Shown in pieces: positions 6,543 to 45,570 of a DNA stretch of 47,028 bases. Made by a program: the position numbers and the translations under genes. Position 1 is the stretch's first letter, and each line of letters begins with the position of its first letter. Below the pieces are notes generated by a model. It did no database searches and was not told the origin of the DNA. It was given only the letters and a program-made list of their open reading frames with translations. The DNA comes from a virus. Lineage: Duplodnaviria; Heunggongvirae; Uroviricota; Caudoviricetes. Where the stretch lies: the IMG/VR virus record IMGVR_UViG_2778261425_000003; one strand, given 5' to 3'.

Positions 6543-7097
6543 TCATTTATCTCCGACCGGAAACTTCTTATACAGTGTCGATATACCAACATCATAGATG
6601 ATCGCCACCTTCTGGCGAGGAACGCCTGATGCAATTAATCGCCCGGCCTGCGCCCATTGTTCTGGTGTAAGTTTGGGACGACGTCCACCAATTCGTCCCT
6701 GTGCGCGAGCAGCCTCCAGTCCAGCTTTTGTTCGTTCAACAATCAGCTCTCGTTCCATTTCAGCCAGGGCCCCCATCACATGAAAGAAAAAACGCCCCAT
6801 CGGTGTGCTGGTATCAATTGAATCCGTCAGACTACGAAAGTTGATGCCTCGTTCGCGCAACTCCTCCACCAACACGACAAGATGCCGCATACTACGCCCC
6901 AGCCGATCCAGCTTCCAGACAACCAGAGTGTCACCTGCCGATAATGTCCTGAGCAGTTTTTTCAGTCCCGGCCTTTCGGACTTTGTGCCGCTTATCTTAT
7001 CTTCAAAAATCAGCTCGCATCCTGCACAGTTCAGCGCATTACGTTGTAGATCTGTGTTCTGGTCATTTGTTGACACACGTACATAGCCAATAAGCAT
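6543..7097 (-). CDS. pin: serine DNA invertase, Pin/Gin/Hin family
   Basis: 184 aa MLIGYVRVSTNDQNTDLQ...; catalytic Ser in YVRVSTNDQ, C-terminal HTH; GGGAG RBS before ATG 7097. Confidence 0.9.
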   Translation of the reverse strand: MLIGYVRVSTNDQNTDLQRNALNCAGCELIFEDKISGTKSERPGLKKLLRTLSAGDTLVVWKLDRLGRSMRHLVVLVEELRERGINFRSLTDSIDTSTPMGRFFFHVMGALAEMERELIVERTKAGLEAARAQGRIGGRRPKLTPEQWAQAGRLIASGVPRQKVAIIYDVGISTLYKKFPVGDK

Positions 7098-7123
7098 GGT
7101 AGATCTCCCTGACAAAAGCAGGA

Positions 7124-7516
7124 ATGATGCCATTTGCTCGTTATTTATGTATTTTTATAAACGTTGGTTTGGGAGAAGCGGCTAAAAGGAATGTAGGGAC
7201 AGGGGCGAATCAGATACCTGATATGGGTAGCTTCACGCTTTCTGTTTCAGGTACTGGATATCAAAAATTACCATCAGGTTTTATTCTTCAGTGGGGCTCA
7301 ATCGGCGCACCAGGCATTGCACAGGATGTAGTAACCCATTTCCCGATTGCATTTCCAAACAGATGTCTGCGTGTTTTGGTCTCACAAGACTACACACCAG
7401 ATAGCGGGGCTGTTGGTTATATTGCCTGTGCAGGTTTTAGTCCCGACCCGGTTAAATTTATATCCAGAGCCAGTACTCCTGGCCTCGGCGCTTCATTTTT
7501 AGCGTTAGGCTGTTAA
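7124..7516 (+). CDS. alternative tail-fibre C-terminal segment (Sv'), promoterless in this orientation
   Basis: Open frame running from the left crossover site; no own start context; would fuse to the constant N-terminus after inversion. Confidence 0.45.
7153..7178. repeat. gix/pix-like invertase crossover site (left)
   Basis: Reverse complement TTCTCCCAAACCAACGTTTATAAAAA matches the inverted copy at 9029-9054 over 14 contiguous nt plus a partial right half. Confidence 0.7.
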
Positions 7517-7537
7517 TTTAGCTATATGGAGTGAAAA

Positions 7538-7978
7538 ATGAATTACATATATTCCGCGACTACAAACTCTTTCTATCCGCTGGAGATGAAAGAGGATTAC
7601 ACTCAAGCTGACTCATGGCCAGATGATGCTGTTGAAGTTGATGAGCAAGTGTATATTGAGTTTTCCGGATTACCGCCGAAAGGAAAAATCCGTATCGCTG
7701 GAGAAAATGGTTTTCCTGCATGGTCTGAAATTCCACCACCAACACATGAGGAACAGATTGCTGCAGCCGAACTGGAAAAGCAGCAACTGATTAATCAGGC
7801 CAACGATTATATGAACAGTAAACAATGGCCTGGTAAAGCGGCTATTGGTCGTCTGAAAGGTGAGGAACTGGCGCAATATAATTTGTGGCTGGATTATCTG
7901 GACGCACTGGAACTGGTTGATACCTCCAGTGCTCCAGATATTGAATGGCCTACGCCTCCGGCAGTTCAGGCCAGATGA
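7538..7978 (+). CDS. tail fibre assembly protein (U'-type), alternative orientation
   Basis: 146 aa MNYIYSATTNSFYPLEMKEDY...; conserved C-terminus DYLDALELVDTSSAPDIEWPTPP shared with the opposite-strand paralogue. Confidence 0.75.
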   Translation: MNYIYSATTNSFYPLEMKEDYTQADSWPDDAVEVDEQVYIEFSGLPPKGKIRIAGENGFPAWSEIPPPTHEEQIAAAELEKQQLINQANDYMNSKQWPGKAAIGRLKGEELAQYNLWLDYLDALELVDTSSAPDIEWPTPPAVQAR

Positions 7979-8552
7979 CATCCGGCGCGGTGCTGGTATC
8001 TGTTGCCGTCACCGCGTCAATGTAATCCAGCACGGCGTTAAGTCGGGTTGTTTCTGCCTGCGTCAACTTCCGTCCGGCCTGTAATTTCAGCTGAATCAGA
8101 CTAATGGAAACCATTGCTGCATCAATCAGTGACTGGCGCTGTGCTTCTGCCGCTTCTACTGCGGCGCTATGCTGTGCCTCAGTATCCGTCACCCATTTCT
8201 CACCATCCCATTTATCATATGGCGTTAACGGGGCGATAGTGGTTGTATTTTCAGGGTAATCACCCGGAGCTGTGATTTCTTTGGCGTCTCCCGTTTCGGT
8301 GTTATAGACGATTTCACCGCGATGGTCTGACACATATTCCCATGATTTTAAATCCACAGAACGGCAAATTGTATAACCAGCTTTATGTGTAACTGGTGCA
8401 TCTAAACAAGAACATGCTGGGATACCGACGCCAACCGCAAGATATTCAGTTGATGTGGAAATATATTCCCGCGTTTCACCATCATAGTTATAAACGGTAA
8501 TATCCCCTGCCTTTGTAGCAACAAGTCCACTATTTAATATTGCTTTATCCAT
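7950..8552 (-). CDS. tail fibre assembly protein (U-type), currently expressed orientation
   Basis: 200 aa; C-terminus LDYIDAVTATDTSTAPDVIWPELPEA; directly downstream of the tail-fibre gene. Confidence 0.75.
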   Translation of the reverse strand: MDKAILNSGLVATKAGDITVYNYDGETREYISTSTEYLAVGVGIPACSCLDAPVTHKAGYTICRSVDLKSWEYVSDHRGEIVYNTETGDAKEITAPGDYPENTTTIAPLTPYDKWDGEKWVTDTEAQHSAAVEAAEAQRQSLIDAAMVSISLIQLKLQAGRKLTQAETTRLNAVLDYIDAVTATDTSTAPDVIWPELPEA

Positions 8553-43332: not shown

Positions 43333-43348
43333 CAAAGAGGAATTAATC

Positions 43349-43513
43349 ATGAGAGGACTTGCATACAATCCCGGCATTCTTCCGGCAGAAATGATTATTC
43401 GCCAACGCGTAAAGCCAATGCCATCGAGAGAGGAATTGCTTAAAAGAAATTCTTTTCCTTCAGTGAATCAAAACAAATATCTGAATGCGATGTGGCGGAG
43501 TGGGAAGAAATGA
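43349..43513 (+). CDS. small hypothetical protein (54 aa)
   Basis: ATG with AAGAGGAA RBS; [36 protein letters not shown]...; translated by hand. Confidence 0.35.
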
Positions 43514-43875
43514 AACAAATGTCACTAATTGAGATGGATGGTTTTCTGAAAGGTAAATGCATCCCACGAGATTTAAAGGTTAACGAAACAAACGCTGAAT
43601 ACCTGGTGCGTAAATTCGATGCGCTTGAAGCTAAATGTGCAGCACAGGAAAACAAAGTAATACCAGTGTCAACTGAACTGCCACCAGCAAATGAAAGTGT
43701 TTTGTTATTCGATGCTAACGGAGAAGGCTGGCTAATTGGCTGGCGTTCTCTCTGGTACACCTGGGGACAAAAAGAAACCGGAGAATGGCAGTGGACATTT
43801 CAGGTCGGGGACCTTGAAAACGTCAATATCACTCACTGGGCAGTAATGCCAAAAGCACCGGAGGCTGGAGCATAA
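43510..43875 (+). CDS. DUF551-family lambdoid protein
   Basis: C-terminal ...[47 protein letters not shown]; ORF-track start 43492 is GTG, ATG at 43510. Confidence 0.55.
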
Positions 43876-44180
43876 TGACCACTTTTACCGACAAAGAACT
43901 GATTAAAGAAATTAAAGAGCGTATCAGCAGCCTTGACGTGCGAGACGATATTGAGCGCCGTGCTTATGAAATCGCACTCCTATCTCTGGAAGTAGAACCA
44001 GATGAACGCGAAGCTTATGAATTATTCATGGAAAAGCGTTTCGGTGACTTAGTAGATCGTCGGAGAGCAAAAAACGGCGATAACGAATACATGGCATGGG
44101 ATATGACTCTCGGTTGGATCGTCTGGCAGCAACGAGCTGGTATCCATTTTTCAACAATGTCACAGCAAGAGGTGAAATAA
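43875..44180 (+). CDS. hypothetical protein (101 aa)
   Basis: ATG overlaps the upstream stop (TAATG); [43 protein letters not shown]... Confidence 0.5.
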   Translation: MTTFTDKELIKEIKERISSLDVRDDIERRAYEIALLSLEVEPDEREAYELFMEKRFGDLVDRRRAKNGDNEYMAWDMTLGWIVWQQRAGIHFSTMSQQEVK

Positions 44181-44530
44181 TGGAGCCATACAGCCTCACA
44201 CTCGATGAGGCCTGTCATTTTCTCAAGATATCCAGACCGACTGCCATTAACTGGATACGCACAGGGCGTCTTCAGGCAACACGCAAAGATCCCACTAAGA
44301 ATAAATCTCCTTACCTCACAACACGACAAGCCTGCATTGCGGCTCTTCAGTCTCCGCTGCATACTGTCCAGGTGAGCGCGGGTGATGGCATAACAGAGGA
44401 AAGAAAATGTCACTCTTCCGCAGAGGTGAAATATGGTACGCCAGTTTCACATTGCCGAACGGTAAAAGATTTAAACAGTCTCTTGGAACAAAGGACAAAA
44501 GGCAGGCGACAGAACTCCATGACAAGCTAA
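44180..44530 (+). CDS. xis: excisionase (P22 Xis-like)
   Basis: 116 aa from ATG 44180 (AGGTGAAATAATG); HTH region [28 protein letters not shown]; 3' end overlaps int by about 120 nt. Confidence 0.6.
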
Positions 44531-45570
44531 AGGCTGAAGCATGGCGGGTCAGCAAACTTGGTGAAATACCTGATATAACGTTCGAGGAAGCGTGTGTCAG
44601 GTGGCTTGAAGAGAAAGCACATAAAAAATCACTGGACGATGACAAAAGCCGGATCGGATTCTGGCTTCAACATTTCGCAGGAATGCAACTAAGAGACATT
44701 ACTGAATCAAAAATTTATTCAGCAATGCAGAAAATGACAAACCGGCGTCATGAGGAAAACTGGAAACTCAGGGCAGAAGCATGCAGAAAAAAAGGGAAAC
44801 CTGTTCCAGAATACACGCCAAAACCAGCGTCCGTTGCAACGAAGGCTACGCATCTTTCATTTATAAAGGCCCTACTAAGAGCCGCAGAGCGTGAATGGAA
44901 AATGCTGGATAAGGCACCAATTATTAAAGTGCCTCAACCAAAGAATAAACGGATCCGCTGGCTGGAGCCCCATGAAGCACAAAGGCTGATTGATGAATGT
45001 CCGGAGCCATTAAAGTCTGTTGTTGAATTTGCACTGGCAACAGGCTTAAGACGCTCGAACATCATCAACCTTGAATGGCAACAAATAGATATGCAGCGCC
45101 GGGTGGCATGGATAAACCCGGAAGAGAGTAAATCAAACCGCGCAATTGGCGTTGCGCTGAATGATACTGCATGTCGCGTATTGAAAAAACAAATCGGGAA
45201 TCATCACCGTTGGGTATTTGTGTACAAGGAAAGCTGTACCAAACCAGACGGAACGAAAGCGCCAACAGTAAGGAAGATGCGGTATGACGCAAACACAGCC
45301 TGGAAAGCGGCGCTGAGACGGGCTGGTATTGATGATTTCAGATTTCACGACTTGAGACACACCTGGGCAAGTTGGCTGGTTCAAGCCGGAGTCCCGTTGT
45401 CAGTGTTACAGGAAATGGGAGGTTGGGAGTCTATCGAAATGGTTCGTCGATATGCTCACCTTGCACCTAATCACCTTACCGAACACGCACGGCAAATAGA
45501 CTCGATCCTGAACCCATCGGTCCCAAATTTGTCCCAGTCAAAAAATAAGGAAGGTACTAATGATGTGTAA
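44407..45570 (+). CDS. int: tyrosine integrase (lambda/P22 Int family)
   Basis: 387 aa; AGGAAAGAAA RBS; C-terminal catalytic R...HxxR...Y (…[16 protein letters not shown]…VRRYAHL); 3' end 14 nt from the tRNA. Confidence 0.9.

Follow-up and report, generated by a model that had tools for sequence, protein, structure and literature searches.

What kind of phage joins a lambda-type regulatory and lysis region to an HK97-like head and a Mu-like contractile tail, and is such a combination one phage at all? The question is raised by a stretch of DNA of 47,028 nucleotides (nt) from IMG/VR record IMGVR_UViG_2778261425_000003 (Caudoviricetes), hereafter called the window, to whose full length all coordinates refer. 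An earlier note on this DNA had proposed a single three-way mosaic prophage resembling the SfV-like temperate myoviruses that integrate at the tRNA gene thrW. To address this proposal, candidate proteins were compared by tblastn with those of SfV, SfI, vB_EcoM-689R6 (689R6), Mu, HK97, and lambda, and their lineage was cross-checked by Pfam. The tblastn and Pfam results, the gene order, and a virion module with ∼97% nt identity to known phages confirm a single SfV-like mosaic, and the gene classes named in the note were all found where it had placed them. The element is very probably a single temperate myovirus prophage of the SfV/SfI/SfII/SfIV-e14 family, complete and apparently undamaged as far as its sequence can tell.

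The virion genes carry most of this evidence. In tblastn comparisons each gene is full length and 93-100% identical in amino acids (aa) to its counterpart in SfV, SfI, or 689R6, and the virion module (9028-27278, excepting one inserted moron) is ∼97% identical in nt to SfII, SfI, SfIV, SfV, and 689R6. From end to end, the genes are collinear with those of SfI and SfV, each a single packaged genome, and the head, packaging, and lysis genes occur in one set only. A comparison of the whole prophage with Shigella phages of the SfV/SfII type, which the note had called for, thus found close kinship: SfI aligns to 58.6% of the prophage with 97% nt identity, and 689R6 to 46% with 96%. HK97 and lambda cover 20.8 and 17.5%, respectively, both at ∼97%, with the HK97 blocks all lying outside the head module, and Mu covers 1.4% at ∼72%. 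Read from these coverage and identity figures, the "lambda-type" label appropriately describes near-identity, whereas "HK97-like" and "Mu-like" describe a family-level resemblance of 26-43% aa identity.

The head and packaging module bears out the HK97-type assignment by its Pfam families. We observed the order HNH, TerS, TerL, (YmfR), portal, protease, and capsid, with a PF05065 capsid, an S78 protease immediately upstream of it, an HK97-family portal, an HNH gene adjoining the terminase, and no separate scaffold gene. By tblastn, the head proteins are 97-100% identical in aa to those of SfI and 95-100% to those of 689R6, and they are 26-36% identical to HK97 gp2-gp5. The portal and capsid share only 25-28% with their SfV counterparts, and the protease had no SfV match in the same search. 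The head is therefore of the SfI/e14 allele, in agreement with the SfI and SfIV papers (PMC3636060, PMC3851460), the second of which assigns the head proteins to the HK97 family. The adjoining tail terminator, neck, and connector genes are 93-100% identical in aa to SfI or 689R6, and their homologs in PapM-32-1 are annotated as head closure and connector proteins.

The tail is that of a myovirus. A siphovirus lineage for the tail genes was considered and rejected, as the tail and baseplate proteins fall in Mu-specific Pfam families and are 98-100% identical in aa to those of SfV and SfI. The sheath, tube, tape measure, and baseplate genes stand in Mu order, as the note had stated, with a module corresponding to Mu gp38-gp48 and a collinearity that runs from gp38 to gp53. 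By tblastn, the proteins corresponding to Mu gp39 and gp43-gp48 are 30-43% identical in aa to their Mu counterparts and the sheath is 36% identical to Mu L, while the tube, chaperone, and tape measure match Mu by family and position only. No window protein matched Mu genes outside gp23 (Rz) and gp39-gp53 in this search. Homologs of the Mu transposase proteins A and B were not found by tblastn; in their place the prophage has a tyrosine integrase and att sites.

The early and late-control genes follow lambda and HK97. Divergent cI and cro genes, the antiterminators N and Q, O/P-type replication genes, and a nin region were found in lambda order, which is the lambdoid arrangement. The note had listed lambda cI, cro, O, P, Q, S, R, and Rz; all are present and the early and late-control genes are 91-100% identical in aa to lambda or HK97, but Rz and Rz1 (84% identical to SfV Rz1) are of the SfV type, and neither had a tblastn match to lambda. 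CI and Cro are 100% identical to the HK97 proteins and 98-99% identical to those of lambda and SfI, and at the nt level positions 35844-36868 are 97.7% identical to lambda and a block at 35383-39130 is 99.1% identical to HK97. In the rightward operon, NinI (97%), NinH (100%), NinG (98%), NinB (99%), and Ren (99%) are closest to lambda, CII (91%) and the DNA methyltransferase (96%) match HK97, and Pfam assigned the families NinX, Phage_CII, and Metallophos. The sole find of a tandem-repeat scan was an iteron-like 20-bp repeat at 35005-35042, inside O.

Phages of the SfV type integrate at the 3' end of thrW, beside proA, through a core of ∼46 bp. In the window, ARAGORN and Rfam found an intact tRNA-Thr(CGT) gene, thrW, with proA beyond it (45775-47028), the same arrangement as at the thrW locus of Escherichia coli O157 Sakai; the Rfam scan of the window had no other match. 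When the thrW end was used in a repeat search, it recovered a 48-bp exact direct repeat of which one copy lies inside the tRNA gene and the other at 3605-3652. The 125 bp to the right of this left copy (3653-3777) match the attP arm of SfI, SfII, SfIV, and SfV at 96-98% identity, and the SfI stretch that matches 3600-3777 includes its annotated attP core. The excisionase (99%) and integrase (98-99%) are nearly identical in aa to those of SfV and SfI by tblastn. Integration at thrW is thus borne out by the intact tRNA gene, the repeat, the attP arm, and the adjacent proA. The repeat and the attP arm place the predicted prophage at 3605-45630 (∼42 kb), a span that holds a single integrase and a single pair of att repeats. 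The extent of 6543-45570 given in the note is too short, since the left end lies ∼3 kb further left and the cargo genes at 4142-6485 fall inside the prophage.

Of the features that mark the SfV type, the thrW site, the int/xis genes, and the collinear packaging-head-tail module are present, and the gtrA-gtrB-gtr(type) cassette is absent: no window protein matched SfV or SfI gtr genes by tblastn. That cassette defines only the serotype-converting subgroup of the family. The slot that it would occupy (3653-6542) holds instead a fragment of an insertion sequence (IS) of the IS3 family, an AraC-family gene, and a GIY-YIG gene, in line with the proposal that a regulator and a nuclease had taken the place of serotype-conversion cargo.

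The regulator is probably PatE. It is identical at 244 of 247 aa (99%) to Sakai ECs_0287, the sole AraC gene in the thrW prophage Sp1, and its best full-length NCBIfam resemblance, below the cut-off, is to YdeO, a YdeO/GadX-like similarity. PatE is z0321 on OI-8, an AraC-like regulator of enterohaemorrhagic E. coli (EHEC) that is encoded on a prophage and activates gadBC, gadE, and hdeAB (PMC10877973). The correspondence between ECs_0287 and z0321 is itself inferred: the accessible literature offers no direct mapping, and a published study in which ECs0287 is induced at entry into stationary phase says nothing on it.

The nuclease is CMoRE/PD-T4-3. It shares ∼98% identity with the CMoRE of E. 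coli O157:H7 that has been crystallised (PDB 9U75) and ∼85% with 9U7U over residues 17-274. It has the architecture of CMoRE, an N-terminal GIY-YIG (GIYxY-YIG) nuclease domain followed by a C-terminal modification-sensing domain, and it retains the catalytic residues Y17, Y19, and Y31 and a four-residue acidic autoinhibitory loop (DDDE). CMoRE is a type IV modification-dependent endonuclease that degrades T-even DNA containing 5-hydroxymethylcytosine (5hmC) or glucosyl-5hmC, as described for the O157 protein in a structural paper whose main text never mentions the word prophage (PMC12923530); CMoRE/PD-T4-3 has also been reported to be active in its native clinical isolate. The activity of the protein encoded here is predicted from these near-identical proteins. 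To assess prevalence, we used 5426 complete E. coli genomes, in which presence of the larger regions described below meant coverage of at least 80%. The CMoRE allele, counted at nt identity of at least 95% (window 5700-6490), occurs in 838 of them. In 822 genomes the match spans 80% of the gene or more, and 565 of these have CMoRE contiguous with pin. From this contiguity we conclude that CMoRE is mostly carried at the ends of prophages of the SfV/e14 type.

The extension of the prophage to 3605 depends on these cargo genes belonging to it. Left of the distal att site (1-3604) lies a CP4-6-like island that recurs in other strains at 99% identity and that carries a YfjS/YafY-family lipoprotein, ykfB, ykfF, the yafX antirestriction gene, a JAB/RadC gene, and the yafW-ykfI toxin-antitoxin pair. 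The AraC and GIY-YIG genes could be part of this island, with the prophage ending at the invertase in keeping with the extent given in the note, as might be thought from strain 2EC1, which matches window 1-6543 at 99.2% and diverges afterwards, and from the presence of the AraC and IS module in unrelated temperate phages. Against this, the att copy and the 125 bp of attP arm lie left of the cargo, which therefore sits between att and the tail genes, at the place of gtrABC in SfV and SfI. The 2EC1 sequence past 6543 consists of another prophage's tail-fibre genes, so the cargo stands at a prophage end in that strain as well; furthermore, the annotation of Sakai Sp1 includes the AraC and CMoRE genes, and CMoRE is commonly contiguous with pin. 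We regard an island origin as very improbable and rejected it. An even more improbable reading is that independent elements lie side by side, a lambdoid prophage and a Mu-like or P2-like tail element or tailocin cluster. The sharp shifts in GC content and closest relatives along the region are what such an arrangement would produce, but the single att pair, the single integrase, the lack of Mu transposase homologs, the collinearity with SfI and SfV, and the single head, packaging, and lysis set led us to reject two adjacent elements also. It is the single thrW prophage that appears to have inserted between thrW and an older thrW-associated CP4-6-like island, giving a tandem arrangement.

Whether this single prophage is also functional is a separate matter, on which several points weigh against us. 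Functionality is predicted solely from intact reading frames. No lesion was found by a check at the level of open reading frames (ORFs), in which operators, cos, nut, and qut were not examined in detail. Many thrW prophages of the SfV/SfI type are decayed, as is Sakai Sp1 with its pseudogenised int, O, and P. The left 25 kb (3600-28500, comprising cargo, virion genes, and the tail-operon moron) is present in 161 of the 5426 genomes at ∼97% identity, but the right early-region combination (17.7 kb, 28000-45700), in which lambda O/P/Q, HK97 immunity and N, RecT/Gp157 recombination genes, and SfV int/xis are joined, is present in none (best coverage 63%) and reaches the same threshold in no phage record searched (best 55%). 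There is therefore no proven-viable phage with exactly these modules. With two extra morons in or beside the late operons, the prophage might look intact and yet be cryptic through defects invisible at the ORF level, for example in cos, operators, or promoters, or through incompatibility of its modules. We consider this unlikely, although it is by far the most serious of the alternatives. The structural and regulatory ORFs all have their full length, each with 91-100% aa identity to a counterpart in plaque-forming or induced SfI, SfV, HK97, or lambda, so the inactivating lesions in structural genes that would have spoken against the earlier proposal are not seen. Viable SfI already pairs the same virion module with lambda cI/cro/O/P/ren, the tail-operon moron persists in many genomes with otherwise intact modules, and the absence of one exact early combination is normal for lambdoid early regions.

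The G-like invertible fibre segment proposed in the note is supported by an invertase, inverted repeats, an in-frame alternative fibre, and both orientations in related genomes. The invertase is 79% identical in aa to Mu Gin and 95% to that of 689R6, and it is annotated as pinE in related genomes. The crossover sites form an inverted repeat of 20 nt whose arms are 95% complementary and whose AAACC..GGTTT core resembles Mu gix, and the right arm falls at codons 95-102 of the fibre gene. In the expressed fibre, the N-terminal 42% matches SfV orf21 at 94% identity and the C-terminal 64% matches HK97 Stf at 90%. When positions 7159-9047 were inverted in silico, an in-frame alternative fibre of 213 aa was formed with the silent C-terminus (Sv'), which is predicted to be expressed only after inversion; Sv' is 51% identical to an SfI fibre region and is annotated in PapM-32-1 as a gp53-like domain protein, and tfa' is annotated there as a tail fiber assembly protein. 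A 701-nt synthetic query spanning the flipped junction had matches to 80% or more of its length in 382 complete E. coli genomes. The best of these matches were contiguous, at up to 99.4% identity, and the unflipped state is present in PapM-32-1 and Sakai. Both orientations therefore occur in nature, which is evidence at the population level from genomes other than the source strain. Nucleotide homology with SfV and SfI starts exactly at 9028, the right crossover site, and the fibre cassette is a module swapped in at that site.

The three-way architecture has precedents. SfI is a myovirus by electron microscopy that integrates at thrW, and it was called a mosaic phage whose left half is nearest to SfV/e14 and whose right half is nearest to lambda (Sun et al. 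2013, PMC3636060). SfI (NC_027339/JX509734) and the prophage share the thrW att core and int, a tail, baseplate, portal, protease, and capsid that are 98-100% identical in aa, and lambda-type cI/cro/O/P/ren/NinB/NinG. In contrast, SfI has gtrA/gtrB/gtrI in the att-proximal slot, a fixed fibre and no invertase, rexAB, tRNA genes, and an N, Q, holin, endolysin, and Rz unlike those of the prophage, and it is without the tail-operon moron. The record of SfV (NC_003444; Allison et al. 2002) annotates its tail genes as resembling L, N, P, and gp45-48 of Mu. SfV and the prophage have int/xis at 98-99% identity, tail and baseplate proteins at 98-100%, and the terminase in common, and the Rz and Rz1 proteins of the two are 92 and 84% identical. 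SfV differs in its portal/capsid allele (25-28%), in a protease without a detectable match, in its own non-lambda early region, in its gtrABV cargo, and in having no invertible segment. Compared with the Shigella phages, the prophage has a Pin-invertible fibre cassette (common to e14), PatE/CMoRE cargo, an HK97-type N together with HK97-type genes in the rex position, and two morons, one of them encoding a membrane protein and lying between the genes for tape measure and DNA circulation, the other a distinct one between Rz1 and HNH. The SfV, SfI, and SfIV descriptions show that the mosaic headline is already published: it was described for SfV, and SfI (PMC3636060) is a described case in which the right half is lambda-type. 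The prophage is, from its gene content, an ordinary member of the SfV/SfI/e14 family.

Other relatives share parts of this plan. The cryptic e14 of K-12 and its intact relative 689R6 have the same virion module and the same end architecture of ymfQ, invertible fibre segment, pinE, type IV restriction enzyme, and att, but they integrate at icd with another integrase, carry McrA rather than CMoRE, have no AraC regulator, and have a different early region; K-12 e14 is in addition heavily deleted. Mu matches in its order of gp38-gp48, fibre, tfa, tfa', fibre', and invertase and has a similar crossover core, but nt similarity is marginal, its transposase A/B, head, and early genes are not in the prophage, and it has com/mom after gin. 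Lambda and HK97 share cI/cro (98-100%), and O/P/ren, Q, S, NinB/G/H/I, N, and cII each have a near-identical counterpart in at least one of the two phages; HK97-type families include the capsid, protease, portal, and TerL. However, both are siphoviruses with non-contractile tails, the lambda head genes are unrelated, and HK97 resembles the head at the low identity given above. Sp1 of O157 Sakai (NC_002695.2 300042-310627, 10.6 kb), which we take to be the same as CP-933H/OI-8 of EDL933, shares the thrW site, int (pseudogenised in Sp1), cI/cro, and O. It matches the window at both ends, at cI-cro, at O, and in the pin/CMoRE/AraC/IS/attP-arm block at 89-98% nt identity; in that block, with CMoRE as ECs_0285, identity is 95-98%, about 97%. 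A truncated P abuts the fibre gene in Sp1, and its head, tail, lysis, and late-control genes are all lost. By this comparison, Sp1 is a deletion remnant of this type of prophage.

Two low-GC morons interrupt the late region. Searches of Pfam, PADLOC, NCBIfam, and PDB with both gave no match, only PHROG families of unknown function were found, and single-sequence AlphaFold2 models of both were unusable (mean predicted local distance difference test score ∼39). The tail-operon moron (GC ∼0.40) lies between the tape-measure and DNA-circulation genes, with its own promoter-like site and a terminator hairpin. In the promoter scan, counts were at chance level. It is absent from SfV, SfI, and 689R6, whose homology it breaks at 14356-15022, and it is present in PapM-32-1 and kept in many E. 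coli genomes. Its position beside the tape-measure gene recalls the superinfection-exclusion moron gp15 of HK97. At the slot of the other moron, SfI and 689R6 have unrelated genes, and this is therefore a variable moron position.

The end beyond the fibre invertase is occupied differently in three related tail modules: by CMoRE here, by McrA in e14 (K-12 order: ymfQ, invertible fibre segment, pinE, mcrA, att), and by Com/Mom in Mu (gin, com, mom). The segments concerned are 5712-7133 of the window, 14686-16180 of the K-12 e14 sequence, and 35092-36602 of Mu. The post-invertase end of these modules repeatedly bears payloads related to restriction or modification. It is possible, though doubtful, that the att-proximal slot of SfV/e14-type myoviruses is a dedicated one, exchangeable for anti-superinfection genes, and, separately, that the tail-operon moron encodes a new superinfection-exclusion protein acting on DNA entry, by analogy with HK97 gp15. 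Contents of such a slot may differ by lineage, with gtrABC for receptor masking in Shigella, McrA in e14, and CMoRE with PatE in thrW prophages of E. coli; Mu com/mom is in an analogous place. As a separate observation, the AraC gene and the IS3 fragment (3887-5531) form a joint module that recurs at 99% nt identity in the phage records ev099, mEp332, and PhiR70_1, where CMoRE is lacking.

The coordinates of all features are collected in Table 1. Among the early genes, the HK97 gp49/gp48 homologs (37157-38202) stand between cI and N, where lambda and SfI have rexA/rexB, and had no significant PADLOC match. A full-length Nmad5 ("nucleotide modification associated domain 5") protein (39081-39764, +) directly follows N, with no obvious partner modification genes nearby. 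An HNH_3 plus AP2 protein resembling a homing endonuclease (40441-40968, +) lies among small unannotated leftward early genes.

Table 1. Features of the thrW prophage, listed from left to right along the window
Feature	Coordinates	Strand	Basis or closest match
Distal att site, duplicated thrW 3' end	3605-3652		Left boundary of the prophage
IS3-family transposase fragment (remnant)	3873-4100	+	Incomplete integrase-core-domain protein in 2EC1; ISEc48 IS3 partial in Sakai Sp1
AraC/XylS-family regulator, probably PatE	4142-4894	-	Pfam HTH_AraC, HTH_18
Predicted CMoRE/PD-T4-3 GIY-YIG type IV restriction endonuclease	5712-6485	+	PADLOC PD-T4-3, E=2.7e-140, full length
Pin/Gin-family serine DNA invertase	6543-7133	-	Pfam Resolvase, HTH_7
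Invertible tail-fibre segment, 1.9 kb	7159-9047		Crossover sites 7159-7178, 9028-9047
Silent alternative fibre C-terminus (Sv')	7179-7516	+	In-frame with constant N-terminus after simulated inversion
Alternative tail-fibre assembly protein (tfa')	7538-7978	+	30% aa to SfV orf22, 33% to Mu U'
Tail-fibre assembly protein, current orientation	7950-8552	-	Pfam Caudo_TAP; 89% aa to HK97 Tfa
Expressed tail fibre	8552-9331	-	SfV-type constant N-terminus (∼95 aa), HK97 Stf-like C-terminus; Pfam Collar
Mu-type baseplate module (gp48-, gp47-, gp46-, gp45-, gpP/gp44-, gpN/gp43-like)	9335-14338	-	Pfam Phage_Mu_Gp48, Baseplate_J, GP46, Phage_Mu_Gp45, GpP-like domains, DNA_circ_N
Low-GC moron in tail operon, 176 aa, N-terminal transmembrane segment	14394-14924	-	phrog_5485 (unknown function)
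Contractile-tail core: tape measure, chaperones, tube, sheath, DUF2635/Mu gp38-like	15016-19265	-	Pfam
Tape measure	15016-16848	-	Pfam PhageMin_Tail
Tail chaperones	16841-17259	-	Pfam Phage_TAC_7
Tube	17259-17615	-	Pfam Tail_tube
Sheath	17615-19111	-	Pfam Phage_sheath_1/1C/domII
DUF2635/Mu gp38-like ORF, 56 aa	19095-19265	-	ORF found
Tail terminator, neck, and head-tail connector genes	19274-21245	-	Pfam Phage_tail_terminator
Head and packaging module: capsid, S78 prohead protease, portal, YmfR, TerL, TerS (P27 family), HNH	21295-27278	-	Pfam
Capsid	21295-22503	-	Pfam Phage_capsid PF05065
Prohead protease	22515-23201	-	Pfam Peptidase_S78
Portal	23143-24384	-	Pfam Phage_portal
TerS and TerL	24578-26811	-	Pfam Terminase_4, TerL_ATPase, TerL_nuclease
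HNH endonuclease	26928-27278	-	Pfam HNH
Low-GC moron between lysis and packaging genes (Rz1 and HNH), 169 aa, Cys/His-rich	27386-27895	-	phrog_18591 only
Lysis cassette: Rz1, Rz (SfV-type), endolysin R, holin S (lambda-type)	27962-29257	-	tblastn
Rz	28098-28490	-	92% aa to SfV
Endolysin R	28474-28950	-	91-93% aa to SfV, HK97, lambda
Holin S	28934-29257	-	99% aa to lambda
Lambda/HK97-type rightward operon: Q, NinI, NinH, NinG, NinX, DNA methyltransferase, NinB, Ren, P, O, cII	29691-35719	-	tblastn, Pfam
Q	29691-30314	-	100% aa to lambda
P	33793-34494	-	97% aa to lambda
O, with ori iterons	34491-35390	-	99% aa to lambda
Immunity region, divergent cro/cI	35858-36872	cro 35858-36058 (-), cI 36159-36872 (+)	tblastn
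HK97 gp49/gp48 homologs in rexAB position, then HK97-type N	37157-39079	+	99-100% aa to HK97; Pfam N_peptide
Leftward early accessory genes: Nmad5, unknown gene, HNH-AP2, RecT, Gp157, DUF551, SfV orf28/29 homologs	39081-44180	+	Pfam Nmad5, HNH_3 and AP2, RecT, Sipho_Gp157, DUF551; partly matched in HK106, HK140, PDP110P1
Excisionase and tyrosine integrase, SfV type	44096-45570	+	Pfam HTH_17, Phage_integrase
Integrase	44407-45570	+	Adjoins tRNA-Thr(CGT)
Proximal att core within intact thrW	core 45583-45630, tRNA 45585-45660	-	ARAGORN, Rfam, direct repeat

Taken together, the comparisons show from the sequence that an SfV-type tyrosine integrase inserted the phage into the 3' end of thrW, duplicating the 48-bp core. 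The prophage is laid out and controlled as a lambdoid phage: cI/cro are of lambda immunity and N is of the HK97 type, while O/P (with the ori iterons), Q, and the holin are those of lambda. It encodes a particle with an HK97-type head, its capsid processed by a protease and its terminase HNH-assisted, on a Mu-type contractile tail with a baseplate in Mu order. By analogy with the G segment of Mu and the P segment of e14, Pin would flip the 1.9-kb segment, exchanging the fibre C-terminus and its assembly chaperone and toggling host range. In the lysogen, two genes in the att-proximal slot may benefit the host: a PatE-like regulator, whose near-identical O157 protein would activate the GAD/hdeAB acid-resistance genes, and CMoRE, which, judging from the enzymology of near-identical proteins, would degrade the 5hmC- or glucosyl-5hmC-containing DNA of T-even phages.

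This prophage opens no new question, as the three-way mosaic has been known for the family since SfV and SfI, and the value of its analysis lies mainly in annotation. CMoRE/PD-T4-3, a known defence enzyme against T-even phages, is placed as prophage cargo, the probable EHEC acid-resistance regulator PatE is placed in the same cargo block, and an apparent full-length form of the O157 remnant Sp1 is identified. The analysis also shows that one phage chassis bears genes for O-antigen modification when in Shigella but a restriction nuclease when in E. coli, which fits the accepted view that the ends of prophages are hotspots for defence and fitness genes.

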